Assembly: GCF_964244875.1 (NCBI RefSeq)
Contig: NZ_CAXTKA010000013.1
Coordinates: forward strand, 41,577 to 105,576
Length of the DNA: 64,000 bases
Direction of reading: 5' to 3'
Origin: an uncultured Devosia sp.
GTDB taxonomy: Bacteria; Pseudomonadota; Alphaproteobacteria; Rhizobiales; Devosiaceae
The translations under genes were made by a program, and so were the position numbers. Position 1 is the first letter of the stretch, and the number at the start of each line of letters is the position of its first letter. The notes under the pieces were generated by a model. It searched no databases. It was not told the DNA's origin and saw only the letters and a program-made list of their open reading frames with translations. Of the stretch, positions 4,212-27,144 are shown piece by piece.

Positions 4212-4276
4212 GGTTGTACCGAGCGCCTCTCGCTGTGCAGGTCAGGGCAGTTCATCGCTTCAGAGCCGGTCGTCCA

Positions 4277-5385: not shown

Positions 5386-5741
5386 GATGCGGCGGAGGTC
5401 GGTACGCGGCAATTTGCGGCCGTCTGGGCAGCCGGCGCACAAATCTCGGGTCGACCCTGGCAGCAATCCTCCATCAGGAAGGCGATGAGCCCGGCCAAGC
5501 CATCATAGTTGGCACAATAGATGATGGAGCGAGCCTCGCGCCGCGAGGTGATCAACCCAGCTCTTTCCAAGTGCGACAGATGAAACGACGCACTTGATGA
5601 GGAAGCGCGCACCGCAGCGCCGACGGCTCCGGCGGCCAGGCCATCGGGCCCCGCGACCACAAGGGTGCGGACCATCCTGAGTCGGGTTTGCTGCGACAAG
5701 GCACCAAACGCATTGAGGGCTTGATGTTCTTCCATTTTCAT
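5382..5741 (-). CDS. arsR: ArsR/SmtB repressor with C-terminal As(III) site
   Basis: wHTH SFHLSHLERAGLI; C-terminal CCQGRPEIC triad as in the A. ferrooxidans ArsR type; start may be 5735. Confidence 0.92.
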   Translation of the reverse strand: MKMEEHQALNAFGALSQQTRLRMVRTLVVAGPDGLAAGAVGAAVRASSSSASFHLSHLERAGLITSRREARSIIYCANYDGLAGLIAFLMEDCCQGRPEICAPAAQTAANCRVPTSAAS

Positions 5742-5770
5742 TTCAATATCTCAACAATAATTGAAATGAA
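5737..5770. promoter_or_regulatory. Perfect 11-12-11 inverted repeat, probable ArsR operator
   Basis: TTCATTTCAAT-N12-ATTGAAATGAA spans most of the divergent arsR/DUF6428 gap. Confidence 0.7.
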
Positions 5771-5782
5771 GGATATCCCATC

Positions 5783-6295
5783 GTGGACGGGCACGCCACC
5801 CCTCTTGTTCCGACCGACGCCTCGCTGGACCAGTTGCTGGCGGCGCTGGAAAGCCACGAGGCCAAGCTATTGGTCATCGACTACGCCGACCGACGCATCC
5901 AGCCCGGCTACCATGTTACCGAGGTCAAGGCGGGTTCCTTCGTCACGCTGGACTGCGGCGGCAACCCCGACGCCTGGCAGGAAACCGTGCTGCAGGTCGA
6001 GGATATTGCGGCCAGCGAGGGGCGCACCTTCATGACCGTGGCCAAGTTTTGCGGCATCCTCGTCCTGGTGGACCGCAAGGTGCGGCTCAACGGCGATGCC
6101 CGGCTGACCTTTGAGGTCAGCCGTCCGGGCGAACCCATGCAGGTGTTCGACGTCGCCGATGTCGCCATCGAAAACGAAACCGCCGTGCTGCGACTCGCAG
6201 CCCGTCCGGCCATCTGCAAGCCCCGTCACCGCGCAGAGCAGGAAGCGGCGGCACCGGCCTGCTGTGCACCCCATGGCAAAACGAGCTGCTGCTAA
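5783..6295 (+). CDS. DUF6428-like Cys-rich protein
   Basis: YHVTEVK...LDCGG...WQET.LQ motif; C-terminal CKP...CC...CC. Confidence 0.75.
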   Translation: MDGHATPLVPTDASLDQLLAALESHEAKLLVIDYADRRIQPGYHVTEVKAGSFVTLDCGGNPDAWQETVLQVEDIAASEGRTFMTVAKFCGILVLVDRKVRLNGDARLTFEVSRPGEPMQVFDVADVAIENETAVLRLAARPAICKPRHRAEQEAAAPACCAPHGKTSCC

Positions 6296-6318
6296 CCGCT
6301 CCGTCCAAGGACTTCACC

Positions 6319-7545
6319 ATGACTTCGCGCATTCCGGCCCGCGCCATCTGGGCGTTGGGCGTGACCCAGATCATTGGCTATGGCACGCTCTACTATTCGT
6401 TCAGCGCGGTCGCACCGACGATCGGGCAGACCTTCGGCTGGCCGCCGGAATGGATTTTCGGCGCTCTGACCATAGCCCTGCTGGCTGGAGGATTGATTTC
6501 CCCCTTCAGCGGACACCTTGTCGACCGCTTCGGGGCCGCGCGCACGATGACAATCGGGTCCATAATCGCTGCCGCATCGCTGGCGCTGGCAGCGGTCGCT
6601 GCAGATGGGTATCTGTTTTCCGCCGCGCTGTTGCTGATGGAATTGGCCTCGACGCTGGTGCTCTATGCGGCGGCCTTTGCGGCGCTGGTGCAGCTCGGCG
6701 GCCGCACTGCGCAGCGCAGCATCACCCATTTGACGCTGATCGCCGGGTTCGCCTCCACCATCTTCTGGCCGCTTACTGCAACGTTGCTGTCCATTATGGA
6801 TTGGCGTGCCGTGTACGGAATATTCGCCGCCATCAACCTGTTGGTCTGTGCGCCGCTGCATTTCCGGCTGGGGCGGATGGGGACCGGCCTTGCCGGCGAA
6901 CCGGCAGGCGAGACCCTCAGCGATCCGAGCGCCGGGCCCGAAGGCGTTATGCCGGTAAACCGGCGTCGGATGGCTTTTGGACTATTGCTGTTCGGCTTCG
7001 CCATCGAAGGCTTCGTGCTCTCGGCCATTTTGCTGCAGATCGTTCCCATCCTGACCGCACTCGGCATGGGCAGCGGCATGCTGCTGGTAACGAGCCTGTT
7101 CGGGCCGGCCCAGGTGTTGTCGCGGCTAACCAACATGATGTTCGGCAAGGATTTTCCCGCGACCCGTCTCGGTATCGTCACGGCCTTGTTGCTCCCGGTG
7201 GGCATTGCGATCCTAGCGCTGACTGCACCATCGATTGCCTGGGCCGTCGCCTTCGCCGTGATGTTCGGCCTCGGCTCGGGTTTGACCAGCATCATATCGG
7301 GATCCTTGCCGCTCGAGCTTTATGGGCGCGAACGGTACGGCGCCAAGTTAGGATGGCTGTCCTCCGCCCGGCAGACGGCCTCGGCCGTCTCGCCCTTCAT
7401 CCTGGCCGTGGTGATGGGCCAGATCGGAGTGCCAGCGGCATTGTGGGCTACCGCCGGCATAGGATCGATTGCTATCGTCGTGTTCGCCGCCATAGCGGTG
7501 CTGGCCACTCATCCGGGAAAATGCAGGCGAGCACTGCTGCGGTGA
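6319..7545 (+). CDS. arsK: MFS arsenite/organoarsenical efflux transporter, ArsK-like
   Basis: N-terminus ALGVTQIIGYGTLYYSF, ITHLTLIAGFASTIFWP, about 12 TM segments, ars context. Confidence 0.8.
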   Translation: MTSRIPARAIWALGVTQIIGYGTLYYSFSAVAPTIGQTFGWPPEWIFGALTIALLAGGLISPFSGHLVDRFGAARTMTIGSIIAAASLALAAVAADGYLFSAALLLMELASTLVLYAAAFAALVQLGGRTAQRSITHLTLIAGFASTIFWPLTATLLSIMDWRAVYGIFAAINLLVCAPLHFRLGRMGTGLAGEPAGETLSDPSAGPEGVMPVNRRRMAFGLLLFGFAIEGFVLSAILLQIVPILTALGMGSGMLLVTSLFGPAQVLSRLTNMMFGKDFPATRLGIVTALLLPVGIAILALTAPSIAWAVAFAVMFGLGSGLTSIISGSLPLELYGRERYGAKLGWLSSARQTASAVSPFILAVVMGQIGVPAALWATAGIGSIAIVVFAAIAVLATHPGKCRRALLR

Positions 7546-7596
7546 CATGACGATCCCGGGGTCAGACTCCTGCAGGCGTCACCCGATTGCACTGGG

Positions 7597-8574
7597 CTAG
7601 GCGGCGTTGACGCCCGTGGTCACCAAGGCAGTCGCGGTCATTTCGTCCGTTATCAGGGTCGTGGGCTGCAGCGTGCGGATGGCGGCGCGGATGGCGTTGT
7701 GCTTTTCCCTGCCACCGGAGATGAGCAGTTTTTCGGGAGTGCGCTTGAGTTTGTCCAGGCTTGCCGAGATCACCCGATAGTTGACCTCGTGATCGACGAT
7801 ATCGCCATCCAGATCGATGAAATTGTACAATACGTCGCCGACGGCGCCGGCATCGATGAGCGACCGCCGGTCGGACTCCGACAGGTAGCCGGTTCGGTAG
7901 CTGGTGGTCAGCGACGAGATGCCGCCAACCGACAAGATCGCGACGTCGAGCTTTTCGGCCATTTCAAAGATTGCCGACAGGCCGCATCGCTCGAGCAGGG
8001 CATGTCGGGTATCGGGGCTGTCGACGACGGCGGGGGCGGGGATCAGGAAGCCTTCGGCCTGAAACAGTTCGGCAAACTGCCAGGCAAATTCGGCGGGGTT
8101 GAAGCGGCGTGCCGCCGCTATCCCCCCCAAGAGCGAAACGACACGAAAGCTGTCCAGCGTGCCACCTGAAATGAAGGGCAAGGTGTTGTAAAGCGTGCGC
8201 CCCCAGCCGACGCCGACGGTCATTCCGGGTCGCATGAGCGCCGAAATCACGCTGCCCGCCGCGGCGGCGATGACCCGTGTCGGATCGCCCTCGGGATCGG
8301 AGAACGGGGCCACCACCACGCGGCCGATGCCAAAGCGGAGCTCCACCTGCCGTTCCAGGCTCACCAGTTCGGCCAGCGGGGCGGAGATCGTCACCCGAAC
8401 TTCGTTGCGCAGGCGGGCGTCGGCAAGCAGGCGGACCACGGCGATGCGGTTGATGCCCAAAAGATTGGCAATCTCGTTCTGGGTTCGTCCTTCGACGTGG
8501 TAAAGCCAGACGGCTCTCGCCCGAAGGCGGTCCGGTTCCTTCTGGGTAAGGGCGGCGATAACGGCCGGCTCCAT
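7597..8574 (-). CDS. SorC/DeoR-type sugar-binding transcriptional regulator
   Basis: AVWLYHVEGRTQNEIA HTH, VGVGWGRTL, GAVGDVL; true start at 8574 inside the chimeric 729-aa ORF. Confidence 0.93.
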   Translation of the reverse strand: MEPAVIAALTQKEPDRLRARAVWLYHVEGRTQNEIANLLGINRIAVVRLLADARLRNEVRVTISAPLAELVSLERQVELRFGIGRVVVAPFSDPEGDPTRVIAAAAGSVISALMRPGMTVGVGWGRTLYNTLPFISGGTLDSFRVVSLLGGIAAARRFNPAEFAWQFAELFQAEGFLIPAPAVVDSPDTRHALLERCGLSAIFEMAEKLDVAILSVGGISSLTTSYRTGYLSESDRRSLIDAGAVGDVLYNFIDLDGDIVDHEVNYRVISASLDKLKRTPEKLLISGGREKHNAIRAAIRTLQPTTLITDEMTATALVTTGVNAA

Positions 8575-8597
8575 GCGTGCCTCACGAGGGGTAACAT

Positions 8598-9895
8598 CTA
8601 GGTCGATGCTTCTACCCCTGCCATAAACCGCATGGCAATTCGAGCGATCCTTTCGGGAACCTCGTAGTGTGGAAGATGTCCGGCACCTTCGACAAGATGC
8701 AGTCCGAACTCGCCGCGAGCAGCCAGGGCCTGCTGGAAAGGCAGCACGCGATCCTGCCGGCCCCACACGATCTGTGCCGGGACTTGCAGCCGGGCCAGCG
8801 CCGGGCGCAAGTCGAAGGTCTGCGTGCCGTCGCGGAACAGGGCGTTGGCCATATCGGCCTGGGCGGCGCGCATGGCCGGGTCGGTGCGCTGCCGGAAGGC
8901 GGCGGCGGCATAGTGGTCGCTGATGGTCTTTGGATCGGCGACCAAGTTGCGCAGCCAGGGCGCAAGGCTCGTGGGATGGCTGGCGCGGGTGATGCCAATC
9001 AAGGTCTCGGCATCGATCTGCGGGCCAAGGCCCGCGGGGGCGATGAGCGTGAGGCTCATACCTGGCGCGGACGGATGTCGGCAATGGCCAGCGCCAGGGC
9101 ACCGCCAAGGGAATGGGCGAGGATGTGGGTGGCGCCCCTGTCCGGCAGGGCGGCGTCGAAGGCCTCGACCAGCATCCTGGCCAGCGCGGCGAAGCTGTCG
9201 ATGCTGCGCTGCGGGGAGCGGCCATGGCCCGGCAAGTCGATGCGGATGAGGGGGCGGTCGACAGCCAATGCGTTTTCGAGCGGGGCCCAGGATTTGGAGT
9301 CGGCGGCGAAGCCGTGCAGCAACAGGAGCGGCATGCCGGTGCCGGGTCGGCGAGTAAGGTTGAGCGCGCCGGGCTGGGGATGCCAGATGGCGGGTGCCGC
9401 AGGCGTCGGCGCGGGGGCCCGGGCCAGGGTGTCGATGTCGTCGCGCTGGATGCGGCCTTGGGGACCGGTGCCGGCAATGTCGGCGAGTTCGAGGCCGGCG
9501 CGGCGCGCAGCGGCCCGGGCGGCCGGGGTGGCGAGGGGGCTGGATAGGTCGAGAGCGGCGGGAGGCGCTGCGGCTGCCTGGGTTGCAACGGGCGCGGCGG
9601 CCTGGACTGGGGGCGGAGGCGAGGTCGCGGCAGCGGGGGGCGGCGTTTCGGTTTCACCTTGGGCATAGAGCCAGGCGATGGCGGCGCCGACTGCAATGCG
9701 GTCGCCGGGTTGGGCGGCGATATGGCGCAGGCGTCCGGAAACCGGCGCTTCCACCTCCATGGCGGCCTTTTCAGTTTCGATATCAAAGAGCGGATCGCCC
9801 TGGCGGACTTCGGCGCCCTCGGCGACGTGCCAGGTGGCGAAGGTGCCGTGGGTCATGTCCATATCGACCTTGGGCATGATGACTTCGGTGGGCAT
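8598..9895 (-). pseudogene. acoC: AcoC-type E2 (lipoyl + E1/E3-binding + alpha/beta-hydrolase-fold domain), frameshifted near 9057
   Basis: IETEKAAMEV lipoyl motif, ATPAARAAARRAG, AHSLGG, GAGHLPH; frames join as RPRQV|SLTLIAPAGLG with one base missing. Confidence 0.85.
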
Positions 9896-9901
9896 GGCGG
9901 G

Positions 9902-10915
9902 TCAGACCTCGCGCCGGACGAGGCGGCGCGCTGCCGCGATAATGGTATCGACCTGCGGGACGGCAGCTTTTTCGAGTTCGGGATTGTAAGGGATGGGCGA
10001 CTCGGCGCCACCCAGGCGCAGGATGGGCGCATCGAGGAAATCGAAGGCATCGCTTTCGGCGATCATGGCGCTGATCTCGGCGCCGACGCCATAGCTCTTG
10101 ACGCCCTCGTAGACCACCAGCAGGCGGCCGGTCTTGCGCACGCTGGCAATGATAGTCTCGTGATCCACCGGCCTGATCGAGCGCAGGTCGATGACTTCGA
10201 TCTCGGCGCCCTCGGCGGCGAGGGTCTCGGCGGCTTCAAGCGCGCGATGCACCATGATGGAACTGGCAACGATGGTGAGCTGGCTGCCGGGGCGGCGGAT
10301 CGCCGCCTTGCCGATAGGCGTGATGTAATGGCCTTCGGGCACATCGCCCTTCATCTTGTAGAGCAGCTTGTGCTCGAAGATCAGCACGGGGTCGGGATCG
10401 TCGAGGGCGGCCAGGAGCATGCCCTTGGCGTCTTCGGGCGTCGAGGGCTGGATGACCTTGAGGCCGGGGACGTGGCCGAACCAGGCTTCAAGGCTCTGGC
10501 TGTGCTGGGCGGCGGCACCAGTGCCAGAGCCCGCGGGCATGCGGAAGACGACCGGGACAGCGGCCTCGCCGCCCAGCATGTAGCGCAGCTTGGCGGCCTG
10601 ATTGACGATCTGCTCCATGGCCAGCGCTGCAAAGTCGGAGAACTGGAACTCGAAGATGGGCTTGAGGCCGGTCAGCGCTGCGCCAACGGCAACGCCGGCG
10701 CCGCCCAGTTCGGAAATCGGCGTGTCGATGACGCGATCGGTGCCGAAACGGTCGACGAGGTCGAGGGTCACCTGGAAGGCGCCGCCATAGACGCCGATAT
10801 CCTCGCCCATCAGCACCACGGTGGGGTCGCGCTCCAAGGCGATGGCCATGGCCTCGCGGATGGCTTCGGCATAGCTCAGGACGCGGGTCTCGGTGGCGGG
10901 GGCAACGGCGTTCAT
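9902..10915 (-). CDS. acoB: TPP-dependent (acetoin/2-oxoacid) dehydrogenase E1 beta subunit
   Basis: [38 protein letters not shown]. Confidence 0.92.
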
Positions 10916-10916
10916 G

Positions 10917-11915
10917 TCAGGCGTCCGCATAGACGAAGCGGGTGACTTCGGAGAGCTTGGGGGACGGGCTGGCCTTGGCGAATTCGATGCCGTCGCGGAC
11001 TTCGGCGCGGGCGGTGGCCGCTATGGTGTCGCCGTCGGCTTCGCTGATGACGCCATGGGCAACCAGCTCGGACCGGAAGCGCAGGATGGGGTCGAGCGCG
11101 ATCCAGGACTCGATCTCGTCCTTGGTGCGGTAGCGGTTGCGGTCGGACTTGGAATGGCCGCGCCAGCGATAGGTCATGTTTTCGACAAGGCTCGGACCTT
11201 CGCCGGCCCGGGCGCGGGCAATGGCGGCATGGGCGGCCTGGGCGATGGCGGAGAAGTCGTTGCCATCCACGGTGACACCCGGCATGGCATAGGCGGCGGC
11301 GCGCTCGGCGATCTGTTTGACGGCGGTGGAACGTTCGGTCGAGGTCGACATGCCGTATTTGTTGTTTTCGCAAACGAAGACGACCGGCAGTTTCCAGATC
11401 GCGGCCATGTTGAGAGCTTCGTGAAAGGCGCCTTCATTGTTGGCGCCGTCGCCAAAGAAGCAGACGGTGACATCGGGCTTGCCCAGCCGCTTCGCCGACA
11501 GGGCCGAACCAACGGCAATGGGCAGACCGCCGCCGACAATGCCATTGGCGCCCAGATTGCCGGTGGTGATATCGGCAATGTGCATCGAGCCGCCGCGACC
11601 GTGGCAATAGCCGGTTTGCTTGCCGAAGAACTCGGCCAGCATGCGCCCCACATCGGCGCCCTTGGCAATGCAATGGCCATGGCCGCGATGGGTCGAGGTA
11701 ATCTTGTCGGTGCGCGCCAGGTCCATGCAGGTGGCCATGGCGCTGGCTTCCTGGCCGATCGACAGGTGCATGGTGCCGTGGATCAGGCCGCGGGTATAAC
11801 TGTCCTCGGCGCCCTCCTCGAAGGCGCGGATCAGATACATCTTGTGCAAGGCCTCGCGCAGGCGTTCGGCCGGGTAGATGCGGATGGCGAAGGGGCGGTT
11901 GTCGATCTCGTTCAT
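10917..11915 (-). CDS. acoA: TPP-dependent (acetoin/2-oxoacid) dehydrogenase E1 alpha subunit
   Basis: [26 protein letters not shown]...ENNKY TPP motif, TYRWRGHS. Confidence 0.92.
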
Positions 11916-11924
11916 ATCTGCCTC

Positions 11925-13247
11925 TCAAGCCTGGCCCAGCATGGCGTCCTGGCGCGCGCGCAAAATGGCGATCTTGCTGCCGGCAAGGACTTGCGTATTG
12001 GCCCTGGTGATCAACTCGCCCTTGCGGATCGTCTGGGTGACCCTGGCGCCCGCCAGCAGACCGCAAGGCAGGGCGCCATGCTGACGGGCCTCGACCGCCT
12101 CCATGATCCAGGCGCGGTAGGTGAACTGGCCGATTTCGTCGAGCGTGTCGCCGACATGCAGGTTCCGCTTGGCGACCGCGCCGACCTCCGCCACCGGCTG
12201 GGGCAGGGGCACCATATCGGCCTTGCCGTAGAGCACGACGCGGGCGCAGGTCAGCGGCACTTCGAGCGAGGTCAGATGGTAGGGGCGGAAAAAAGTGAAG
12301 TAGGGGCCCTGGCCCATTTTGAGGTCTTCCATCCGCTCGCGGACGCGGGGATGGTCCATTTCGGCGACAACGAACACGCCCGGTGCGACGCCCTTGCCAA
12401 TGGTGTAATCGACCCGGCCATCGCCCGAGGAGAGGATGCCGCCAGCCGATTGCGGCACGAGCACGCGATTGAGCTCGTCGCGGCCGACGGCCGGCCCGTG
12501 CATGCCGGGACGGTCGGGGATGAGGCCGGTGGCATTGGCAATGGCGGCCATTTCCACCATGGTCTTGGAGCCATCGACGAATTCGACCAGCATGCGCGGG
12601 TTCATGTGGCGGCTGATCGCCTCTTGCTCATAAAGGTCGGGCGTTGCGTCGATGTTGAGCGGATTGTTCTTGCCCTTGCCGGCGCTGACGATGCGATGGC
12701 CCATGGCGCTGACGAATTCGATGAGCTCCATGCAGGATGACGGCTCGTCGCCGGCGCCGAGCGAATAGATTACGCCCAGGCGTTCGGCCTCGTGGCGCAG
12801 GTAAGCGCCGATGGTGACGTCGGCCTCGACATTCATCATGACCAGATGCTTGCCACGCTCCATGGCGGACAGGCCGATCTCCGCGCCGACGGCGGGAATT
12901 CCGGTGGCGTCGACGACGACGTCGATCAGCCCCGACTCCAGCAGGACCTGGACATTGTCGGTCACGGCCACCTTGCCGGCCTCGATGGCGGCGTTGGCGG
13001 CATCGGTGGTCAAGACCTCGGCGGCGCGCTCGGTATCGCCATAGGCGATTTCGACCGAGCGGCGGGCCGCGCCGGGCTTGAGCTCGCTGATGGCGCCGAT
13101 TTCGATGCCTGTCATGTGGGCGACACGGCTGACGATATCGGTGCCCATTTCCCCGGCGCCGACCAATCCGATGCGGATGGGCGTGCCTCCGGCAGCGCGC
13201 AACGCCAAGTCATTGGCCAAACCGGTGAGCGCGACATTCGTGGGCAT
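11925..13247 (-). CDS. NAD(P)-dependent oxidoreductase, homoserine-dehydrogenase-like with C-terminal SAF domain (COG4091 type)
   Basis: VGAGEMG Rossmann motif, VMMNVEADVTIG, GKGKNNPL, DGSKTMVEM, RPYHLTSLE, AKRNL..GDTLDEIG. Confidence 0.85.
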   Translation of the reverse strand: MPTNVALTGLANDLALRAAGGTPIRIGLVGAGEMGTDIVSRVAHMTGIEIGAISELKPGAARRSVEIAYGDTERAAEVLTTDAANAAIEAGKVAVTDNVQVLLESGLIDVVVDATGIPAVGAEIGLSAMERGKHLVMMNVEADVTIGAYLRHEAERLGVIYSLGAGDEPSSCMELIEFVSAMGHRIVSAGKGKNNPLNIDATPDLYEQEAISRHMNPRMLVEFVDGSKTMVEMAAIANATGLIPDRPGMHGPAVGRDELNRVLVPQSAGGILSSGDGRVDYTIGKGVAPGVFVVAEMDHPRVRERMEDLKMGQGPYFTFFRPYHLTSLEVPLTCARVVLYGKADMVPLPQPVAEVGAVAKRNLHVGDTLDEIGQFTYRAWIMEAVEARQHGALPCGLLAGARVTQTIRKGELITRANTQVLAGSKIAILRARQDAMLGQA

Positions 13248-13279
13248 CGATGCTTCTCCTCCAACTACCCTCAGTTAAA

Positions 13280-13292
13280 TGAACATATGTTC
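13280..13292. promoter_or_regulatory. Palindromic operator (T)GAACATATGTTC, candidate site for the SorC-type regulator
   Basis: Perfect 12-bp palindrome in the divergent intergenic region; degenerate second copy TGAACACATGATA at 13365-13377. Confidence 0.6.
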
Positions 13293-13347
13293 TTTTGTAA
13301 ATCATAAGTTCTAATAATACGGCACCGCGAACCGCGTATTTTGGGTG

Positions 13348-13376
13348 TTGACATGCAAATTGTCTGAACACATGAT
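13348..13376 (+). promoter_or_regulatory. Sigma70-type promoter of the ABC operon
   Basis: TTGACA-N17-CATGAT; overlapped by the second operator copy. Confidence 0.6.
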
Positions 13377-13501
13377 AATTTAGTGTAACGAAAGTACGCC
13401 TTGCGACCGTACGATGCCGCTGTCTCCGAGGAGTGAGGAGAAGAAACCGGCTAGACGATTTTTCGCGACGGAGTAGCCTAATCCAGGGAGGATGATCAGT
13501 T

Positions 13502-15049
13502 ATGGTTTTGGGATCGAAAATGTCTCGCCGTTCGCTGTTGCGGATGGGTACTGCCTTTGGTGTCGTGGGTGTGGCATCGAGCCTGCGGCTTCCTGCTTTC
13601 GCGCAGGACCTGCCGGACATTGACGGCGTGCTCGACGGCATTTCCGTCGATGGCTACGTGCGCGAGGATTACCGTACGCTTTACAAGATGAGCAGCGACC
13701 CGCTGTGGGACCCGGCCAAAGACTGGATCCGCACCGTGGATTGGGAAAAGGTGCGCTCCGAGCAGGCGGGCAAGAGCGTCCGTTTCGCCATCGGCGCTGC
13801 GGATCTTGAGTCGGCCGGCCAAGGACTGGTGCCGTTCGAACAATTGTCGGGGATCAAGGTCGAGCTGGTGCCAATTCCGGACGACAGCTTTTACGACAAG
13901 GCGATCGCCGAATTCATTTCCGGCAATGCCTCGTTCGACGCGCTGCAATTTTTCTCGCCGTGGCTTGGCGATTTCGCCGCGCCGGGCTTTCTGGCCTCGC
14001 TCGACGACTATGCCGCCAAGTGGAACCTGCCGCTCGACGATTTCTATGACACGTACAAGCTGAACTACGGCTATTTCGGCGGCAAGCTGGTGGGACTGCC
14101 GTTCGACTGCGATATCCAGATGGTGCATCTGCGCAAGTCCATCATGGAGCCGATCCTGGGTGGCGAGATCGACCGCGTCAATTCGGTCCCCAGCTATGAC
14201 GAGCTGATCCGGGTGACGGGCGAAGCCGCCAAGCTGGGGGGCGATGTCCGCGGCATCGGCATGATGGGCGCCCGCGGTTTCTAGGCCACCTATACCTGGG
14301 AGCACATTGGCGCCCAGGCCGGACTGCAGCTGTTCGACGAGCAGTTCAACCCCACGCTCACCAGCGAGGCGGGCATCAAGGCCATGGACATCATCCTGGC
14401 GCTGCAGAAAAACGCCATCGAGGGCGTGTCGGCAGCTGGCTGGGGCGAAAACCGCGCCGCCTGGCTGGGCGGCCAGGTCGCCGCCAATATCAGCTGGCAG
14501 GATTCGGGGACGCAGGCGATGCGCCCCGACCAGTCCAAGATCGTCGACGACTTCGTCACCATCTACGAGCCGCGCATCGCCGGCGGCGTATTCGCCCCGC
14601 CCAATATTGCCGGGTCGACCTCCTGTGTGGCCGCCAGCGCGCAGAATCCGGAAGGCGCCTTCCTGATGCTGGCCTTCCTGACCACGTCCTCGATCATGGC
14701 GATGAACGAGGCCAATGCCAATGGCGTCGCGCCCGGCTATCGCTCGGTGCTGGCCAACGCCAAGCTGCGCGCCGTGTCGCAGCCCATGGAAGTGTGGGCC
14801 AACAGCCTCGAACACGCCTGGTGCGCGCCGCGCCTGCCCGGCATGTTCGAAATGGAGCAGGCCCTGGGCAACGAGATCAACCGCGCCATCAGCGGGCAGA
14901 TCTCGGGCAAGGAAGCGCTGGAAAACGGCCAGACCGCCTGGAAGGCGATCATGGAAAAGAACGGCTTCAGCGGCGGCACCGGCCCTGTCGCCTTTGCCGA
15001 TATCAAGCCCGGCCTCTACCAGGGCGAGGGCAAGGCGCTGCCGTTCTGA
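13502..15049 (+). pseudogene. Tat-exported carbohydrate ABC substrate-binding protein with in-frame TAG at 14282-14284
   Basis: SRRSLL Tat motif; reading frame continues GF*ATYTWEHIG into ORF 14384..15049 (same frame), about 515 aa in total. Confidence 0.85.
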
Positions 15050-15119
15050 TGACCACGGACGCGTCCACACCAATCACGGCTGGGGTGGCGCTTCCACCCC
15101 GAGCCTCCCACGCGCCGTG

Positions 15120-15998
15120 ATGCGCCGGCGCAGCCCCTGGCTGCGCCGCGCGTTTCCCTACCTGCTGGTCGGGCCGGCGGTCATCTACCTTCTGGTGATC
15201 ACGCTCTATCCCGGCATTTTCGCCATTTATCAGAGCCTGTTCGTCGTCCGCTTCAATTCCTGGACTTTCGCCGGGCTCAACAATTACGCCGGCATCCTGC
15301 GCGACCGCGAATTCTGGGCGGCGCTGGGCAATACCGCGATCATCGGCAGCATCTCGCTTGCCCTGCAGTCCGGCATCGCGCTGGCGCTGGCCTATTTTGC
15401 CTATCGCGACCCGCTGGTGCGCGGCTGGCGCATCGTCTTTCTCATGCCCATGCTGTTCATGCCCTCGGCTGTCGCGTTCATGTGGAAGCTGGCCTTCAAC
15501 GATGGCCGGGTGATTTCGGATCTCCTGATGCGGCTTGGCCTGGTCGAGACCTATGTCGACTGGACCGGCTCGGAATGGCTGGCGCGCCTGATCCTGATCG
15601 TCGCCGATGTCTGGCAATGGACGCCGTTCCTGTTCATCATTTTCGTCGCGGGCCTGCAGGGGCAGGACCAGGAAATCGAGGAAGCGGCGCGGCTCGACGG
15701 CGCCAGCTGGCCCGCAATCTTCTGGAACATCTCGCTGCCGATGATGCGGCCAATCATCGTGGTCGCGGTGACCCTGCGCGGCATCGATATCACCACCATG
15801 TTCGCCAATGTCTATATCATGACGCAGGGCTCGCCTGGCGGCGCGACGGAGACGATGAGCTACTTCATCTATCGCCAGGGCTTTCGCATGTTCAGCTTCG
15901 GCTATGCCTCGGCCGCCTCGGTGCTGATGCTGATCGTGATGACGATCCTGGCGCAGACCATCGTCAAGCGCGCCTTCCATTCGGGGAAAACGCCATGA
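15120..15998 (+). CDS. Carbohydrate ABC permease 1 (original start may be the ATG at 15049, separated by a frameshift)
   Basis: FAGLNNY, ADVWQWTPF, EEAARLDGAS EAA loop. Confidence 0.9.
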   Translation: MRRRSPWLRRAFPYLLVGPAVIYLLVITLYPGIFAIYQSLFVVRFNSWTFAGLNNYAGILRDREFWAALGNTAIIGSISLALQSGIALALAYFAYRDPLVRGWRIVFLMPMLFMPSAVAFMWKLAFNDGRVISDLLMRLGLVETYVDWTGSEWLARLILIVADVWQWTPFLFIIFVAGLQGQDQEIEEAARLDGASWPAIFWNISLPMMRPIIVVAVTLRGIDITTMFANVYIMTQGSPGGATETMSYFIYRQGFRMFSFGYASAASVLMLIVMTILAQTIVKRAFHSGKTP

Positions 15999-16840
15999 CA
16001 AAGGCGCGAAAGTCCCGCCGGGCGGGAAGCCTGGTGCTGCGCTACCTGGTGCTGGGAAGCTGGGCGCTGGTCTGCCTTGCGCCGATCGTATGGTTTCTTA
16101 CCATCGCCTTCCGACCCCGCACCGAGATCATCACCCCCTCGCCGATCTATTGGCCCACCTTCTCACTCGATGCGTGGACGCTGTTGATCAACGACTGGCC
16201 GATCGGGGACTATCTGCGCAACTCGATCGTGGCGGTGACGGGATCGGTGATCATCGACCTCGCCCTCGCCATCCCCGCCGCCTTCGCGCTCAGCCGCTAC
16301 GAATTCAAGGGGCGGGACGATATCGGTTTCTATATCCTTTCTACCCGCATGATGGCGCCTGCCATCGTGGCGGTGCCGATCTTTTTCCTGTTCCGCTGGC
16401 TGGGGCTGCTCGACACGGTCTGGGCGCTGATGATCATCTATGCGGCGGTCAACCTGTCGCTGGTCACCTGGATCATCCGCTCCTATATGCTCGATATTCC
16501 CAAGGACCTGGAGGACGCGGCGCGCACCAATGGGGCGGGCGATCTGCGCATCATGTGGGAAATCGTGGTGCCGGCGTGCCTGCCGGGCATCATCACCGCA
16601 GCAGTGATCGCGGCAATCTTTGCCATCAACGAATTCCTGTTCACGCTGCTGATCGCCTCCACGTCGGACGCCTATACCATGTCGGTGGCGCTGGCCAATT
16701 TCACCGGCGGGTCGGACGGGGTCATCTACAATGCTATCGCTCTGGTCTCGTTCATCGCGTTCGTGCCGATCCTGGGTCTGGTCATCCTCATCCAGGGGCA
16801 TCTGTCGCGCGGGCTGACCATGGGCGCTGTGAAAGGGTAA
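15995..16840 (+). CDS. Carbohydrate ABC permease 2
   Basis: LEDAARTNGA EAA loop, NEFLF; ATGA overlap with permease 1. Confidence 0.92.
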   Translation: MTKARKSRRAGSLVLRYLVLGSWALVCLAPIVWFLTIAFRPRTEIITPSPIYWPTFSLDAWTLLINDWPIGDYLRNSIVAVTGSVIIDLALAIPAAFALSRYEFKGRDDIGFYILSTRMMAPAIVAVPIFFLFRWLGLLDTVWALMIIYAAVNLSLVTWIIRSYMLDIPKDLEDAARTNGAGDLRIMWEIVVPACLPGIITAAVIAAIFAINEFLFTLLIASTSDAYTMSVALANFTGGSDGVIYNAIALVSFIAFVPILGLVILIQGHLSRGLTMGAVKG

Positions 16841-16844
16841 ACGC

Positions 16845-17891
16845 ATGGCGTCGATCAGGCTGAACAACATCGTCAAGCGCTATGGCGTCTTTACCGGCGT
16901 CGAGAAGATGTCGCTCGACATCGAAGACGAGGAATTCCTAGTGCTGCTGGGGCCCTCGGGCTGCGGCAAGACCACGACCATGCGCATGATTGCCGGGCTC
17001 GATACGCCGACGGAAGGCAGTATCGTCATCGGCGACGAGATCGTGGACGACGTGGATGCGCGCGACCGCGACGTGGCCATGGTGTTCCAGAGCTATGCGC
17101 TCTACCCCAATATGAGCGTTTACGAAAATATCCGCTTTCCGCTGCGCATGCGGGGTGTGCCGGCCAAGGATCAGGACGGGTTGATCCGGCGCGCCGCCAG
17201 CATGGTGGAACTCGAACATCTGCTCGAGCGCAAGCCGGGCGCACTATCGGGCGGCCAGCGCCAGCGTGCCGCGCTGGCCAGGGCCGTGGTGCGCAAGCCA
17301 CAGGTCTTTTTGATGGACGAGCCGCTGTCCAACCTCGATGCCAAGCTGCGCGCGAGCATGCGTGTCCAGATCAAGCACCTGCAGCGCCAGCTCAAGATCA
17401 CCACGATCTATGTGACGCACGACCAGATCGAGGCGATGACGCTGGCCGACCGTATCGTCATCATGGACAAGGGCATCATCCAGCAGATCGGCACGCCCGA
17501 CCAGATCTATTCCAACCCGGCCAATGTGTTCGTCGCCGGCTTCATCGGCGGCCCGCCGATGAACCTGGTCGAGGGGCAGGCCGAGGGCGGGGTGTTTACC
17601 GCGCCCGGCGTCACGGTGCCGTGTCCGCCGCACGTCCGGGGCAAGGTCACCGCGGGTTTCCGGCCGGAGGACTGCCAGATTCCGGGCACGGACGTCGTGG
17701 GTACGGTCTTTGGCGTCGAACCGACGGGCGACATGACCTACCTGACGCTGGACGTGGGGGGCAGGCATATCGAGATCAAGGCGCCGCGCACGTTCCGATC
17801 GCCGATCGACGCTGCCGTCGGCGTGGCGGTCGATCCGGGCCACCTGCACTTCTTCGGGCTTGACGGGCGCAGAATCGAGCGTGCCGAATGA
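16845..17891 (+). CDS. Carbohydrate ABC ATP-binding protein (MalK/UgpC family)
   Basis: GPSGCGKTT, LSGGQRQR, MDEPLSNLDAKLR, THDQIEAMT. Confidence 0.95.
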   Translation: MASIRLNNIVKRYGVFTGVEKMSLDIEDEEFLVLLGPSGCGKTTTMRMIAGLDTPTEGSIVIGDEIVDDVDARDRDVAMVFQSYALYPNMSVYENIRFPLRMRGVPAKDQDGLIRRAASMVELEHLLERKPGALSGGQRQRAALARAVVRKPQVFLMDEPLSNLDAKLRASMRVQIKHLQRQLKITTIYVTHDQIEAMTLADRIVIMDKGIIQQIGTPDQIYSNPANVFVAGFIGGPPMNLVEGQAEGGVFTAPGVTVPCPPHVRGKVTAGFRPEDCQIPGTDVVGTVFGVEPTGDMTYLTLDVGGRHIEIKAPRTFRSPIDAAVGVAVDPGHLHFFGLDGRRIERAE

Positions 17892-18868
17892 GCCCGCGCT
17901 TCGACTATACCGCCGTCGGCTTCATCACCTTCGATGCGCTCTGCCGGCCGGTGACCGATATCGCGCCGGCTGGCGGCACCTACTTTGTCGACGAACTGAC
18001 GCTGGCCGTGTCGGGAGCCGCCGGCAGTGCGGTGATCGTGGCGGCAAAGCATGGCTTGCGGTCGCGCGCCGTCGGCGGCGTCGGCAATGACGATATGGGC
18101 GACTGGGTGCTGCAGAAGCTGGCCCATTATGGGGTGGACACCACCCATATGCAGCGCTGCCCCGGCTTCACCACATCGTCGTCATTGGTCACCACCAGAC
18201 CCGACGGGGCGCGTCCCGCCTTGCACAAGCGTGGGGCGACCGATGGCTTCTTCGTCGCCGACTCACAGATCGACGACGTGCTGGACACCAAGATCCTGCA
18301 TGTCGGGGGCGTCGGCCTGATGAACCGGATGGACGATAGCGGGCGCACCGAGGAATTGATGCGCGAGGCCAAGCGCCGCGGCGTGATCACCACCCTCGAC
18401 ATCTATGCCTCAACGCCAGCCGACCTGTTGAAAGTCGAGCGCCTGCTGCCCCATACCGACTATTTCCTGCCATCGGAGGAGGAGGCCCAGGCGCTGTCGG
18501 GCCTGACCGGCCATCGCAACCTGGCGCAATTCTTGATCGACAGGGGCGCAGCCTGCGTCATTCTCACGCTGGGCGCGGACGGGGCCTATTACCAGCATCG
18601 CAACGGTACGAGCTTCACGCAGGACGCCTACAAGGTCGAGGTGGTCTGCACCTGCGGCTGCGGCGACTGCTTCAACGGCGGCTTTGCCACCGGATTGCAT
18701 TACGGGCTGCCCGATGAAGACAGCATGCGGCTCGCCCAGGCCTCATCGGCCCAGAATGCGACCGGGCTGGGCAGCCAGGCCGGCGTGAGCACCTATCAAA
18801 ACACGCTTGAATTTATCCAGCGGCACGTTGCGCACAACAAGATGCACTTGGTGCGGGCGTTGGGCTAG
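17888..18868 (+). CDS. PfkB family carbohydrate kinase with atypical signature
   Basis: GVGNDDMGDW, FLPSEEEA, LTLGADGA; C-terminal signature VVCTCGCGDCF in place of DTTGAGD. Confidence 0.88.
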   Translation: MSPRFDYTAVGFITFDALCRPVTDIAPAGGTYFVDELTLAVSGAAGSAVIVAAKHGLRSRAVGGVGNDDMGDWVLQKLAHYGVDTTHMQRCPGFTTSSSLVTTRPDGARPALHKRGATDGFFVADSQIDDVLDTKILHVGGVGLMNRMDDSGRTEELMREAKRRGVITTLDIYASTPADLLKVERLLPHTDYFLPSEEEAQALSGLTGHRNLAQFLIDRGAACVILTLGADGAYYQHRNGTSFTQDAYKVEVVCTCGCGDCFNGGFATGLHYGLPDEDSMRLAQASSAQNATGLGSQAGVSTYQNTLEFIQRHVAHNKMHLVRALG

Positions 18869-18894
18869 GCTAATATCGGGCGTCTGGAGGCGAT

Positions 18895-19584
18895 GTGTTC
18901 AAGGAAGTTTCCATGCGGCCCGATCCTGCACCGATCCGCGAAGCGCTGCGCGGCGTGCGGCATGTGCTGCGGCGGGTAAAGGCATCGTTGCGCGATATGC
19001 CAGCCCCGCCATTGCCGGGTCCTGCGGGCGAAATGGCCGGCAGGGCCGTACGGGAAGTGAGCGTGTTCGCGACTGGCCTTGATGCCGCGGCCTCGAACCT
19101 GGCCCGCAAGGTTCTGGGCGGCACGCAAACCAGCGCAATCCAGCTGCCCGAGGACGTGGACAGCGCGGCCTTTGCCGGCGCACTCTATTGGGCGCTGCAG
19201 CATTTCTTCCAGCGGTTCGAGGTACCAGACCAGTTCGTCAGCGAGCTTGCGGCCCGCGCGGCCTATGAAAAAACGCTTGCACTCGCGGGCGAAACCAACG
19301 GACTGGCGGCCGACCTGACACTGCAACTGCTTGCCGACGGCGTAATCCGGGGTCCTGTGCCTGGGGACACCGGTATCATGGCCAGCGACGACCTTCGCCC
19401 GGTCGCGGTGTTTTCCGCAATGCTGTAGTTGCAATCGGAGCGGTCGGACGAGGAGAACGAGCAGGCGCTGCTGGCCGCCCAGGATGTGGCGGTGGCGCTG
19501 CGCACGGACATAGTCGACGCCTCGAAGGCCGGAAATCGCGAGAATTTCACCAGGCTGTACCATGAATTCGCAGCTCACATCTGA
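18895..19584 (+). pseudogene. Hypothetical alpha-helical protein with in-frame TAG at 19426-19428 (start 18895 or 18913)
   Basis: The frame continues past TAG for 51 sense codons (LQSERSDEENEQALL...FAAHI*) to 19584. Confidence 0.6.
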
Positions 19585-20173
19585 GGCGGCGCGCCGGTTC
19601 GCAAGACTGCCGCAAACCAATGCGCCATTGCGCCTGGCAGCGCGCCAGATGCGCTGGTTTCGAGCCGCGTTCGCAAGCTATGTCCGGCAGTCGGGCGAGG
19701 AGCTGGGCGGCGCGTTCGAGATCGACCATACGCGGCTGGGCACGGCATTCGTTTCTTGGCTGCGCGCGCTTGAGCGGGAGCGACCACGCACCGGCGAGGG
19801 TCGTCGGGAGTTCCTCGACTTTGCCGCCAGCCTCATGTTGCAGGAATTGATCAAGACCATGCCGATCAGATTGAGTGGCGCAGTGGGAGTACGGTCCGAC
19901 GCCGGCGCGATGTTCTGGCCGGAAGGCTTCGTGCTGACCCATTTCTGCCTGCTGGTCCACGACGCCGTCATTGCTCAGGAATACAGCGAGAACGCGACGG
20001 TCAGCCCCAAGATCGATCAAGCCGGTTTCTGGTGGACCTATCGCGAAAATGCGACGGAAGACTATCGCTTGTCGGCCGCGTTCTTCCAGAGCCTTCTGGG
20101 GTATCAGCCGGATTGGAACGCGCCGAGCCATTATCGGCACCTGCGCTCGCTCAATCCTGCATTCAGCCACTGA
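19562..20173 (+). CDS. Conserved-looking hypothetical protein
   Basis: 203-aa ORF with aromatic-rich motifs FWPEGF, WWTYRENA, LLGYQPDW; operonic with the upstream gene. Confidence 0.7.
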   Translation: MNSQLTSEAARRFARLPQTNAPLRLAARQMRWFRAAFASYVRQSGEELGGAFEIDHTRLGTAFVSWLRALERERPRTGEGRREFLDFAASLMLQELIKTMPIRLSGAVGVRSDAGAMFWPEGFVLTHFCLLVHDAVIAQEYSENATVSPKIDQAGFWWTYRENATEDYRLSAAFFQSLLGYQPDWNAPSHYRHLRSLNPAFSH

Positions 20174-20248
20174 GTGTACTGACGTCGGCCATTGCCTCAA
20201 TTGGTCGATCTTACGGGTCGGCACAAGGTCGATGCGATGGGACAGGGC

Positions 20249-20344
20249 GCCATAAAAACCTGCATCGGCTCCGGTCAACGTCAAGGTGCCGTCACCTGCC
20301 AGCCTCAGATCTCCAGCGCCCGTTAGGGTACCGGTCAATTTGCC
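20249..20344 (-). pseudogene. Relic of an autotransporter passenger beta-strand repeat
   Basis: GKLTGTLTGAGDLRLAGDGTLTLTGADAGFYG inside the otherwise non-coding ORF 19547..20542; no signal peptide or beta-barrel. Confidence 0.55.
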
Positions 20345-20619
20345 GATCTTGCCCAATGCTATGGCGATCGTGTTGGTTGTTGCGTTCGTCCTCAGCGCCT
20401 CGCGGCTAGCGATTGTCAGAGGCCCTCGATCGGCAAAGCCAAATATTTGCTCTTGCTGTTGAACGCGTGTGATTCGTGTGTCGAACAGGCACATGCTTGG
20501 TGTTGCACTTGCCGTACCGACCTCGATTCCGGCTCCGGGCATTTGGCCGCACTTGTGGTCACAAACGCGATCGAAGGCAGCGGTCCATGCAGACGTATCG
20601 GATAGCGAACGCGCAGCGG

Positions 20620-21726
20620 CTAAAAGGAAGCCTTGATCCCGCCGCTGACGGTATAAACATAGCCGGTGTCCCAGCTTTCACCCTTGGCGTTGGAGCCGGC
20701 GGCCAGCGTGCTCGCCGACACGCCGCCAGTGAGCTGAACACTGGGCGAGATGGTGTAGATTGCGCCCAGGGCGAGACCGTAACGGTCGGTCTGGCTGCCG
20801 GCAGTCAGCACGCCACTGGCGCCGGGCACCGAGGTACCGCGATCCCAGCTTGCGGTGCCGACAAGGCTTAGCTGCTCGCTGATGGCGTGGCCAATACCAG
20901 CGGTAACGGTCAAGCCGTCCCGGTAGCCAAAGCTGGACACCAGCGGCGCACCGATTGTTGTCACCCTCAGGCGCTGCAGGGTGGACCAGTCCACCCACTT
21001 GACCGAGCCAAGGGCCAGCCAACCGGGTGCAATGCCGGTTTGTCCGCGCAGCTCGAAAGATTGGGGGGTGGTGACGTCGGCCGAGGCTGTGCCGCCAAAG
21101 GCGGTACCCTCGAGGGTATAATGCACCGGCGCATTGTAGACGGCGCTGACCCGCAGGGCGTATTCGGGGATTTCATAGGCAAGGCCCGCGCGCCAGCCGG
21201 TGGACCAGCCATCGATGGACAGAGGCCTACTGGTGATCAGGCCGGTGGGAATGGATGCCTGATAGCTCAGGTTCTGGGCGGAGATACCGCCGATCACGCT
21301 GAGAACGCCTGGGCCGGCCTCTATGCCGACAGCACAGGTCAAGCCGGTATCGGTGGAGCGAACGGATTCGCTGACGGCCTGTTGGGTCAAGGCGGCGTAA
21401 GCGTTGGTGCGCGCGGAATTCGACCCATACGGGTTCTGGACCGTAACCAGGCAACTGGCCATGTCGAGGACGTCGGCCTTGAAGCCGACATTGTAATGCA
21501 TGCGCGCAGGGGTGGTTGACACCGTTCCGGGCATGACGCCAGGATTGGTCACGTTCTTTTCAATATGGACATAGGTCGCGGTGGCCTTGGTCGCATAGGG
21601 TGCCGGGTCAAACAGAAGATCCCAGTCGTAACCGTTGGCTTCAAGTCCTCCAGCACAGGCTCCCGCAATAAAAGGGAGACTTGCTGCCAAGCCAGCCATT
21701 GCGCCGAACAGACGCTTCATATTCAT
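20620..21726 (-). CDS. OmpP1/FadL/TodX family outer-membrane transporter
   Basis: Signal peptide then AGGLEANGYDWDLLF, YEIPEYALRVS, WVDWS, terminal Phe. Confidence 0.85.
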   Translation of the reverse strand: MNMKRLFGAMAGLAASLPFIAGACAGGLEANGYDWDLLFDPAPYATKATATYVHIEKNVTNPGVMPGTVSTTPARMHYNVGFKADVLDMASCLVTVQNPYGSNSARTNAYAALTQQAVSESVRSTDTGLTCAVGIEAGPGVLSVIGGISAQNLSYQASIPTGLITSRPLSIDGWSTGWRAGLAYEIPEYALRVSAVYNAPVHYTLEGTAFGGTASADVTTPQSFELRGQTGIAPGWLALGSVKWVDWSTLQRLRVTTIGAPLVSSFGYRDGLTVTAGIGHAISEQLSLVGTASWDRGTSVPGASGVLTAGSQTDRYGLALGAIYTISPSVQLTGGVSASTLAAGSNAKGESWDTGYVYTVSGGIKASF

Positions 21727-21941
21727 GCGGATTCTTCTCGCTCAGCAAATTTTGTTACAGCCCGTTCGAAAACATAGCTGCAATAAGTTAGCCGAACGTC
21801 AAAATGGGCTGCGCACGTGCATCCAAGTCAGTCAGTGCGTGTTGCAAGACTGATGTACCGATGCTGTACGGCTCCGACTGGGAGCGAGCTGTCATGCCGG
21901 CCAACGAGCTGCATATGGCACGCCGGATAAATTATGACCGC

Positions 21942-23426: not shown

Positions 23427-23492
23427 GAACCCTCGGTCGTTTCCCGCTCGAATCGCGGTGTGCCGTTTTGGGAGAAGTTTGCGGGAGCGGAC

Positions 23493-23507
23493 TTAAGAGG
23501 GGATTAA
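23493..23507. promoter_or_regulatory. CtrA binding box upstream of tacA
   Basis: TTAA-GAGGGGA-TTAA (TTAA-N7-TTAA). Confidence 0.75.

Positions 23508-25693: not shown

Positions 25694-27144
<1,451 letters not shown>

Follow-up and report, generated by a model that had tools for sequence, protein, structure and literature searches.

A Devosia gene cluster centered on type II DXP reductoisomerase as a candidate route for catabolism of 2-C-methyl-D-erythritol

A candidate pathway for a branched-chain polyol

We analyzed a 64,000-nucleotide stretch of DNA from an uncultured Devosia sp. (contig NZ_CAXTKA010000013.1), referred to below as the 64-kb window, and focused on a cluster of genes at 7597-20173 (all coordinates are positions in the window). 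This cluster combines an ortholog of the type II reductoisomerase (DXR-II) of DXP (1-deoxy-D-xylulose 5-phosphate) with genes for a dehydrogenase complex and for the uptake of a sugar or polyol. We propose, with moderate confidence, that it encodes a catabolic, and incidentally a salvage, pathway for the branched C5 polyol 2-C-methyl-D-erythritol (ME). The initial annotation of this DNA had described a pathway for an unidentified sugar or polyol. Its view of a catabolic-looking module stands, and in place of an unidentified substrate we predict ME or, less probably, 1-deoxy-D-xylulose (DX).

In the proposed pathway, ME would be imported by an ATP-binding cassette (ABC) system of the CUT1 family and phosphorylated by a PfkB-family kinase to MEP (2-C-methyl-D-erythritol 4-phosphate); in other genera, a glucitol-type phosphotransferase system (PTS) would carry out both of these steps. 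DXR-II, operating in reverse, would then oxidize MEP to DXP. A heterodimeric E1 enzyme dependent on thiamine pyrophosphate (TPP) would split DXP between C2 and C3, freeing glyceraldehyde 3-phosphate (GAP), while the C2 unit would move onto the lipoyl arm of E2. E2 would form acetyl-CoA, and a housekeeping E3 would reoxidize the lipoate. Finally, a SorC-family regulator, probably sensing MEP or DXP, would govern both operons from their shared intergenic region, with the products of two further genes, hypA and hypB, acting as conserved accessories outside these six steps. The order of import, phosphorylation, oxidation to a ketol, and TPP/lipoate-dependent cleavage is the one that the initial annotation had put forward. 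DXP has the structure CH3-CO-CHOH-R, a head group that it shares with acetoin. In this scheme, three enzymes would carry a polyol phosphate to central metabolism, covering every cluster enzyme of assigned family. The cluster joins two known kinds of system, namely a polyol-phosphate dehydrogenase route and a complex of the acetoin/2-oxoacid dehydrogenase type.

Organization of the cluster

The cluster consists of 12 genes in two divergent, closely packed operons, five on the minus strand and seven on the plus strand. The reading frames of E1alpha and E1beta overlap by 14 nt on the minus strand, and the start of permease 2 overlaps the stop of permease 1 (15995 versus 15998). The features are as follows, with the supporting matches in parentheses.

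7597-8574, minus strand: SorC/DeoR-type regulator closing the minus-strand operon, 325 aa (Pfam Sugar-bind PF04198, E 5e-53, together with an N-terminal helix-turn-helix [HTH])
8598-9895, minus strand: AcoC-type E2 with lipoyl, E3-binding, and alpha/beta-hydrolase-fold regions, pseudogene (Pfam, NCBIfam)
9902-10930, minus strand: TPP-dependent dehydrogenase E1beta, 342 aa, intact (Pfam Transket_pyr and Transketolase_C; NCBIfam PRK09212, 402 bits)
10917-11915, minus strand: TPP-dependent dehydrogenase E1alpha, 332 aa, intact (Pfam E1_dh, E 6e-90)
11925-13247, minus strand: DXR-II/DRL, DXP reductoisomerase type II, heading the minus-strand operon, 440 aa, intact (Pfam DRL_cat PF21135)
13248-13501, between the operons: divergent control region, 254 bp (alignment of orthologous intergenic regions and promoter scan)
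13502-15049, plus strand: CUT1-family solute-binding protein (SBP), 515 aa if read through, pseudogene (Pfam SBP_bac_1, E 7e-24)
15120-15998, plus strand: ABC permease 1, 292 aa (Pfam BPD_transp_1)
15995-16840, plus strand: ABC permease 2, 281 aa (Pfam BPD_transp_1)
16845-17891, plus strand: MalK/UgpC-type ABC ATPase, 348 aa (Pfam ABC_tran, OB_MalK, and TOBE_2)
17888-18868, plus strand: PfkB-family sugar/polyol kinase, 326 aa (Pfam PfkB PF00294, E 9e-42)
18895-19581, plus strand: hypA, conserved hypothetical, about 228 aa if read through, pseudogene (orthologs; no Pfam family)
19562-20173, plus strand: hypB, conserved hypothetical, 203 aa (homologs; no Pfam or NCBIfam match)

All of the genes that the initial annotation had named are present in these two operons. 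It had also reported the lack of an E3 gene and of a butanediol dehydrogenase, and both observations are confirmed: a tblastn search with a cluster-linked lpdA as the query found no E3 homolog in the whole 64-kb window, and no butanediol dehydrogenase lies within the cluster. Its description of the pathway as self-contained was too strong, because E3 would come from elsewhere and three genes of the window copy are broken. The labels assigned by the PGAP annotation pipeline to parts of the cluster are generic ("NAD(P)H-dependent oxidoreductase," "TPP-dependent dehydrogenase E1," "sugar kinase," and "hypothetical protein"), and an Rfam scan of 7000-21000 gave no matches.

The first gene of the minus-strand operon encodes a DXR-II ortholog

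The oxidoreductase encoded at 11925-13247 matches Pfam DRL_cat with an E value of 5e-66, and it has the architecture of the DXR-II/DRL family: an N-terminal NAD_binding_3 domain (E 6e-8), the DRL_cat domain, and a C-terminal SAF domain (E 1e-3). Its alignment with Brucella abortus DRL/DXR-II (PDB 3UPL/3UPY; HMMER E 1e-189) spans the full length, at 68% identity. DXR-II has been described as an alternative DXP reductoisomerase of the MEP pathway, with DXP and MEP as its substrates, and it is told from DLO1 and DLO2, which are inactive for DXR, by Thr229 and His250 together with Lys191 and Lys193, which anchor the substrate and fosmidomycin (PMC3847144). The reaction of the family is DXP + NADPH <-> MEP + NADP+. 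All four residues (K191, K193, T229, and H250) are invariant in the alignment of the window protein with B. abortus DRL, as expected for a member of the DXR-II clade. Judged by these comparisons, the window oxidoreductase is a full-length DXR-II ortholog, and its predicted activity on DXP and MEP rests on that orthology. This corrects the earlier statement that the COG4091 protein belongs to a group with no established substrate.

The window protein resembles B. abortus DRL/DXR-II in family, clade, DRL_cat and SAF domains, and the four key residues. The two differ in genomic setting, in that the Brucella-type gene is solitary and biosynthetic in a host lacking DXR-I, whereas the window gene heads an E1alpha/beta-E2 operon and its product is predicted to work in the opposite reaction direction. 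Both DXR-II paralogs of Ochrobactrum anthropi complement an E. coli dxr mutant, and both paralogs of Mesorhizobium loti are likewise reported to be functional DXR-II enzymes (PMC3847144). One of the two O. anthropi paralogs is located in a cluster of the present type. DXR-II has been found alongside DXR-I, in bacteria that have only the mevalonate pathway, and in others that lack both pathways (PMC3847144), and its distribution was still unexplained in a 2026 review (PMC13001223). Sinorhizobium fredii NGR234 and Roseobacter litoralis encode DXR-I besides DXR-II (Table S3). Since NGR234 has DXR-I and carries the cluster on pNGR234b, its DXR-II copy should not be needed for biosynthesis. At NCBI, the Brucella-type enzyme bears the name "1-deoxy-D-ribulose 5-phosphate reductoisomerase," apparently a slip for deoxy-xylulose, and the cluster-linked paralogs are named only "NAD(P)H-dependent oxidoreductase" or "homoserine dehydrogenase."

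The DXR-II-E1-E2 arrangement is conserved while the uptake module is exchanged

We surveyed 80 loci from Rhodobacterales and Hyphomicrobiales, taking one genome per species. The closest homologs of the window DXR-II are 82-91% identical to it and come from Rhodobacterales; among genomes, the nearest relative shares 86% identity in its DXR-II protein. The whole 12-gene layout is intact in Fuscovulum and in other contigs. E1alpha lies directly after DXR-II in 72 of the 80 loci and is followed by E1beta (orthologs 76-87% identical) in nearly all loci of sufficient length, and E1/E2 genes are absent within 10 kb of DXR-II in only eight. The gene set is therefore co-conserved, and its arrangement is no accident, a point on which the initial annotation had let its pathway stand or fall in a neighborhood comparison. 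Family identities, gene order, and co-conservation are all direct observations.

Copies of the cluster reside on megaplasmids in Sinorhizobium americanum, S. fredii NGR234 (pNGR234b), Rhizobium etli, Allorhizobium, Aminobacter, and Nitratireductor. In S. americanum, E2 is a classical 2-oxoacid_dh acyltransferase and is followed by lpdA, and the Mesorhizobium cluster has a classical E2 as well. Even in a distant lineage (L089), in which DXR-II is approximately 40% identical, the order DXR-II-E1alpha-E1beta-E2 is kept. Given that the type of E2 varies and the lipoyl arm stays, the conserved function is the lipoate-dependent oxidative transfer of an acyl unit (to acyl-CoA).

The uptake module comes in two main types. 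An ABC importer with a PfkB kinase is found in Rhodobacterales as well as in Sinorhizobium, Stappia, and Pannonibacter. A glucitol-type PTS, in many cases accompanied by an HPr-EI fusion, takes its place in Ochrobactrum (Brucella) anthropi/tritici, Mesorhizobium, Phyllobacterium, Shinella, and Paracoccus onubensis. The same operon is also adjoined in Ochrobactrum by a galactitol-type PTS, and two loci (L020 and L022) hold both a PTS and PfkB. That the importer and kinase are replaced by a phosphorylating polyol transporter implies that the enzymes receive their substrate in the form of a polyol phosphate. The Brucella erythritol (ery) genes show a comparable plan, with an importer, a polyol kinase, a polyol-phosphate dehydrogenase, a SorC-family repressor, and divergent operons; they differ from the cluster in having another dehydrogenase family, no TPP/lipoate cleavage step, and another substrate.

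The ME importer of Salmonella is the sorbitol PTS, according to a report (Testa, Cornish & Poulter 2004) as cited in PMC3994034. The same type of transporter, the sorbitol (glucitol) PTS, flanks the DXR-II-E1-E2 operon in Ochrobactrum, Mesorhizobium, and others, and uptake of ME by such a PTS would be expected to yield MEP. In Salmonella, ME uptake is a side activity exploited in experiments for salvage, whereas the clusters described here have a dedicated PTS, or an ABC importer and kinase pair, tied to the enzymes.

Two loci outside this pattern carry genes with the DXR-II signature. In a locus from Eubacteriales (L088), such a gene directly follows a complete glucitol-type PTS and precedes genes for a class II aldolase, a zinc-dependent alcohol dehydrogenase (Zn-ADH), and an iron-dependent one (Fe-ADH) at 5504-12325; it may be an E1/E2-free variant that processes DXP differently. 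In a Bacillota contig (L087), a homolog is accompanied at 1059-10079 by SorC, an FGGY kinase, a SIS protein, a Zn-ADH, a fucose-isomerase-like protein, and an apiosidase. The DXR-II family may also rearrange other branched-chain sugar phosphates, for example apiose-related ones.

E1 and E2 resemble acetoin and 2-oxoacid dehydrogenases

The read-through E2 protein scores 347.4 bits on NCBIfam NF011457 (acetoin dehydrogenase E2), above the cut-off of 307, which identifies it as AcoC-type, and it contains the Pfam domains Biotin_lipoyl, E3_binding, and Abhydrolase. It has one lipoyl domain, which is normal, as its relatives carry one or two. The nucleophile-elbow motif reads AHSLGG in the window E2 and GHSLGG in most aligned orthologs. 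As in acetoin systems, E2 is adjoined by E1alpha and E1beta of the TPP-dependent 2-oxoacid/acetoin dehydrogenase type; the nearest solved structure for E1alpha is that of human pyruvate dehydrogenase (PDH) E1alpha (E 4e-65). The other hallmarks of such systems, the activator AcoR and an E3 (acoL) or butanediol dehydrogenase gene, are missing: the regulator is of the SorC type, and the window holds no lpdA homolog.

We predict that E1alpha/beta cleaves DXP at the C2-C3 bond. Acetoin and pyruvate dehydrogenases form 1-deoxyketoses, according to a report (Yokota & Sasajima 1986) as cited in PMC3424233. The cluster shares with the AcoABC(L) systems of Cupriavidus necator, Pelobacter carbinolicus, and Bacillus subtilis a heterodimeric TPP-dependent E1alpha/beta and an AcoC-type E2, and the predicted chemistry is the same, an oxidative cleavage of a methyl alpha-ketol to acetyl-CoA and an aldehyde. 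It differs from them in its predicted substrate, the phosphorylated C5 ketol DXP, with GAP as the aldehyde product; in its SorC regulator in place of the sigma-54-dependent AcoR; in the classical E2 of many related clusters; and in its constant pairing with DXR-II and a polyol uptake/phosphorylation module. A second comparison is with DXP synthase (DXS), a TPP enzyme that also acts on the C2-C3 bond of DXP and whose partners are hydroxyethyl-TPP and GAP. However, DXS is a single-chain, lipoate-free enzyme that forms the bond from pyruvate and releases CO2, whereas the two-subunit E1 of the cluster is predicted to break the bond and pass the C2 unit to lipoate.

Importer, kinase, and the two hypothetical proteins

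The transporter has the components of a CUT1 importer, namely an SBP with an SBP_bac_1 domain, two BPD_transp_1 permeases, and an ATPase of the MalK type that has a TOBE domain. The ATPase scores 411 bits against the NCBIfam UgpC-like model, just under the cut-off. Orthologs of permease 1 are 82-84% identical in the closest relatives, in which orthologs of permease 2 are also present. The nearest structures to the SBP are weak matches to sugar and polyol SBPs (5IAI, 5CI5, and 4RYA, the last labeled "Sorbitol"). The PfkB domain covers the full length of the kinase, placing it in that family; the protein reaches no NCBIfam equivalog cut-off, and its nearest structures, again weak matches, are 2-keto-3-deoxygluconate (KDG) kinase and sulfofructose kinase. 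We predict from its family and setting that it is a methylerythritol 4-kinase.

No Pfam family matches hypA, even when the read-through protein is used. Its orthologs are 228-254 aa long with the C-terminal end ...LWLQS...HV, and a distant homolog (hyp261) occurs in PTS-type clusters. For hypB, neither Pfam nor NCBIfam gives a match, and a set of 5.8 billion proteins contains nine homologs; tblastn places homologs in both ABC-type and PTS-type clusters. Its conserved motifs are FWPEG and WW(T/S)YREN. The AlphaFold2 (AF2) model of hypB is confident and all-alpha, with a pLDDT of 81.5, and finds no fold match in the PDB (best E 0.86). The protein may represent a new fold or function.

The shared control region

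The regulator shows weak N-terminal HTH matches and the C-terminal Sugar-bind domain that characterize SorC proteins. In NCBIfam it is DeoR/LsrR-like, below the cut-offs, and a SorC ortholog is present in most related clusters. An alignment of 10 orthologous intergenic regions revealed TGAAC/GTTCA repeats and a TTGACA box in invariant blocks. The promoter scan found a promoter-like TTGACA-17-CATGAT at 13348-13376 on the plus strand, coinciding with the conserved TTGACA box. The repeats are candidate SorC operators and the TTGACA site is a candidate promoter of the transporter operon; a SorC regulator and operator-like repeats fit control by a sugar phosphate.

The Devosia copy is damaged

Three genes of the window copy carry lesions. 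The SBP gene has an in-frame TGG-to-TAG change at 14282-14284, where 25 of 25 aligned orthologs have Trp; the initial annotation had implied such damage by referring to a repaired binding protein. Two further lesions were absent from it. In hypA, a TGG-to-TAG change at 19426-19428 falls at a Trp that is invariant in the orthologs, after which the frame is open to 19581. In E2, a 1-nt deletion near 9056-9059 splits the intact frame into frames of 279 aa and 153 aa; E2 orthologs are continuous at this site. The two nonsense lesions, in SBP and hypA, could be either real G-to-A mutations or sequencing errors. Intact reading frames remain for DXR-II, E1alpha/beta, the kinase, both permeases, the ATPase, and the regulator.

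Because SBP, E2, and hypA are broken, the window copy is probably non-functional. The divergence of hypA and hypB from their relatives exceeds that expected from the divergence of DXR-II, which suggests relaxed constraint. On this sequence evidence, the window cluster is probably in the process of being lost.

Weighing the proposal against its alternatives

In naming a substrate, a direction for DXR-II, a specificity for E1, and ligands for the kinase and SBP, we infer beyond family identity and linkage, and several points weigh against the ME pathway. First, the DXR equilibrium favors MEP, so that reverse flux through DXR-II depends on the removal of DXP by E1. Second, family models and PDB matches do not separate the window E1alpha/beta from PDH-type or acetoin-type E1, so that the specificity of E1 for DXP stands as a prediction. 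Third, comparison with the structure database gave no close characterized relative for the SBP or the kinase. Fourth, the scheme assigns no role to hypA and hypB, and a step may therefore be missing. Finally, because the DXR-II-signature homologs of L087 and L088 sit in other sugar contexts, the family may act beyond MEP. In a search limited to open-access full text, we found no description of a DXR-II-aco-like linkage or of methylerythritol catabolism.

In one alternative, which we consider unlikely, though the least so of those weighed here, the cluster-linked DXR-II paralog would oxidize a different polyol phosphate to a ketol for cleavage by E1/E2, and activity on DXP and MEP would be a side activity. 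In Firmicutes-type loci, the DXR-II-signature homologs have apiosidase, FGGY kinases, Zn-ADHs, or a class II aldolase as neighbors, which speaks for another polyol or branched sugar, as do the uncharacterized SBP and kinase and the unexplained hypA and hypB. However, the window protein is 68% identical to an enzyme of proven DXP/MEP specificity and keeps its substrate-anchoring residues, and of the O. anthropi paralogs that complement an E. coli dxr mutant (PMC3847144), one is cluster-linked. In addition, the ME scheme reaches central metabolism without extra enzymes.

We place second, and likewise regard as improbable, a pathway that starts from DX itself. Here DX would be imported and converted by PfkB to DXP, which E1/E2 would burn to acetyl-CoA and GAP while DXR-II diverts part of it to MEP as a salvage supply for isoprenoids. 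The enzyme identities fit this scheme equally well, and DXR-II would act in its known direction. Yet DXR-II would be dispensable for catabolism, although it leads the E1/E2 operon and accompanies E1 more constantly than any other gene, and DXR-I is already present in hosts like NGR234. The uptake systems that replace the ABC importer are also at odds with DX, being PTSs of the glucitol and galactitol types, which carry polyols rather than ketoses. In favor of DX, a sugar kinase of E. coli phosphorylates its free form, according to a report (Wungsintaweekul 2001) as cited in PMC3424233.

A biosynthetic role is far less likely than either of these. E1alpha/beta could in principle be an alternative DXP synthase (pyruvate plus GAP to DXP) that feeds the adjoining DXR-II to make MEP, given that PDH E1 can make DX(P) and that E. 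coli deficient in dxs can be rescued by mutations in aceE (PMC3424233). For a synthase, however, a lipoyl E2 and an E3 would be superfluous, yet both are conserved; the cluster has an importer, a kinase or PTS, and a repressor of the sugar-phosphate type; and the decay of several window genes is unexpected for an essential pathway. We rejected a biosynthetic DXS bypass on the grounds of the conserved lipoyl E2, the uptake/phosphorylation module, and the decaying genes.

Least credible of all is an ordinary acetoin (or 2,3-butanediol) operon lying beside a sugar transporter by chance, for while E2 exceeds the NCBIfam equivalog cut-off for acetoin dehydrogenase E2 and acoABC operons without an E3 gene exist, the cluster lacks both an AcoR-type activator (the sigma-54 regulator found nearby, at 21942-23426, is NtrC-type) and a butanediol dehydrogenase, many clusters have a classical E2 instead, and the partnership of DXR-II, kinase or PTS, and SorC persists across orders. 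A plain acetoin operon was accordingly rejected in view of the SorC regulator, the sugar-type importer, the kinase or polyol PTS, and the lack of AcoR.

Genes flanking the cluster

Just upstream of the cluster, 4277-7545 holds an ArsC-family gene, a DUF6428 gene, and a major facilitator superfamily (MFS) transporter, which together look like a small arsenic- or metalloid-related group. Immediately downstream of hypB lies a FadL/OmpP1/TodX-type outer-membrane channel gene (20620-21726, minus strand), which is not beside the cluster in four related loci (L001-L004). Beyond it, a plus-strand open reading frame at 21804-23507 (567 aa, no Pfam match) overlaps the NtrC-type sigma-54 response regulator at 21942-23426 on the minus strand. 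With its REC, Sigma54_activat, and HTH_8 domains, the minus-strand frame is the real gene of the overlapping pair, and it is not AcoR. This regulator is absent from the called genes adjoining the cluster in L001-L004.

A possible origin of DXR-II and its implications

The Brucella-type DXR-II that is 96% identical to the crystallized enzyme is solitary and lies between a HAD hydrolase gene and pntAB. In a crude neighbor-joining (NJ) tree without support values, the solitary Brucella-type branch nests among mostly E1-linked copies, and other solitary copies are scattered. This nesting suggests an ancestral clustered state in Alphaproteobacteria, with the solitary housekeeping copies as derived forms.

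Two observations concern the neighbors of the solitary gene. A HAD-family hydrolase is encoded in PTS-type clusters (L063, 16413-17117), and a 58%-identical homolog flanks the solitary Brucella-type DXR-II (L090/L091, 9162-9833); this homology hints that the solitary Brucella locus is a remnant of a cluster. The NAD(P) transhydrogenase genes pntA/pntB stand directly beside the solitary gene (L090, 11433-14587), and pntA/pntB are also found at 25652-28859 on the plus strand of the window, approximately 5 kb downstream of the cluster. The shared proximity to pntAB may be a coincidence, a trace of shared ancestry, or an NADPH link.

We tentatively put forward a broader proposal, one that we find plausible while holding it with slightly less belief than doubt. 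Rather than as a spare enzyme for isoprenoids, DXR-II would have arisen as the MEP dehydrogenase of ME catabolism, working with a new lipoate-dependent "DXP dehydrogenase," assembled from components like those of acetoin dehydrogenase, that runs the DXS reaction in reverse to yield acetyl-CoA and GAP; the Brucella DXR-II would be a domesticated remnant of this pathway, and the window cluster would represent an intermediate stage.

The patchy spread of DXR-II, its redundancy with DXR-I in many genomes, and its presence in bacteria without the MEP pathway have been unexplained since 2010 (PMC3847144). A catabolic origin, if true, would explain all three. The ME pathway would also constitute a new catabolic route for a widespread polyol derived from plants, algae, and isoprene, and DXP would represent a new substrate class for complexes of the acetoin/2-oxoacid dehydrogenase type. 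The model predicts growth on methylerythritol and DXP-dependent formation of acetyl-CoA by E1/E2. The cluster might find use as an ME-to-MEP feeding module for isoprenoid engineering, and the proposed origin bears on DXR-II as an antibacterial target in Brucella.

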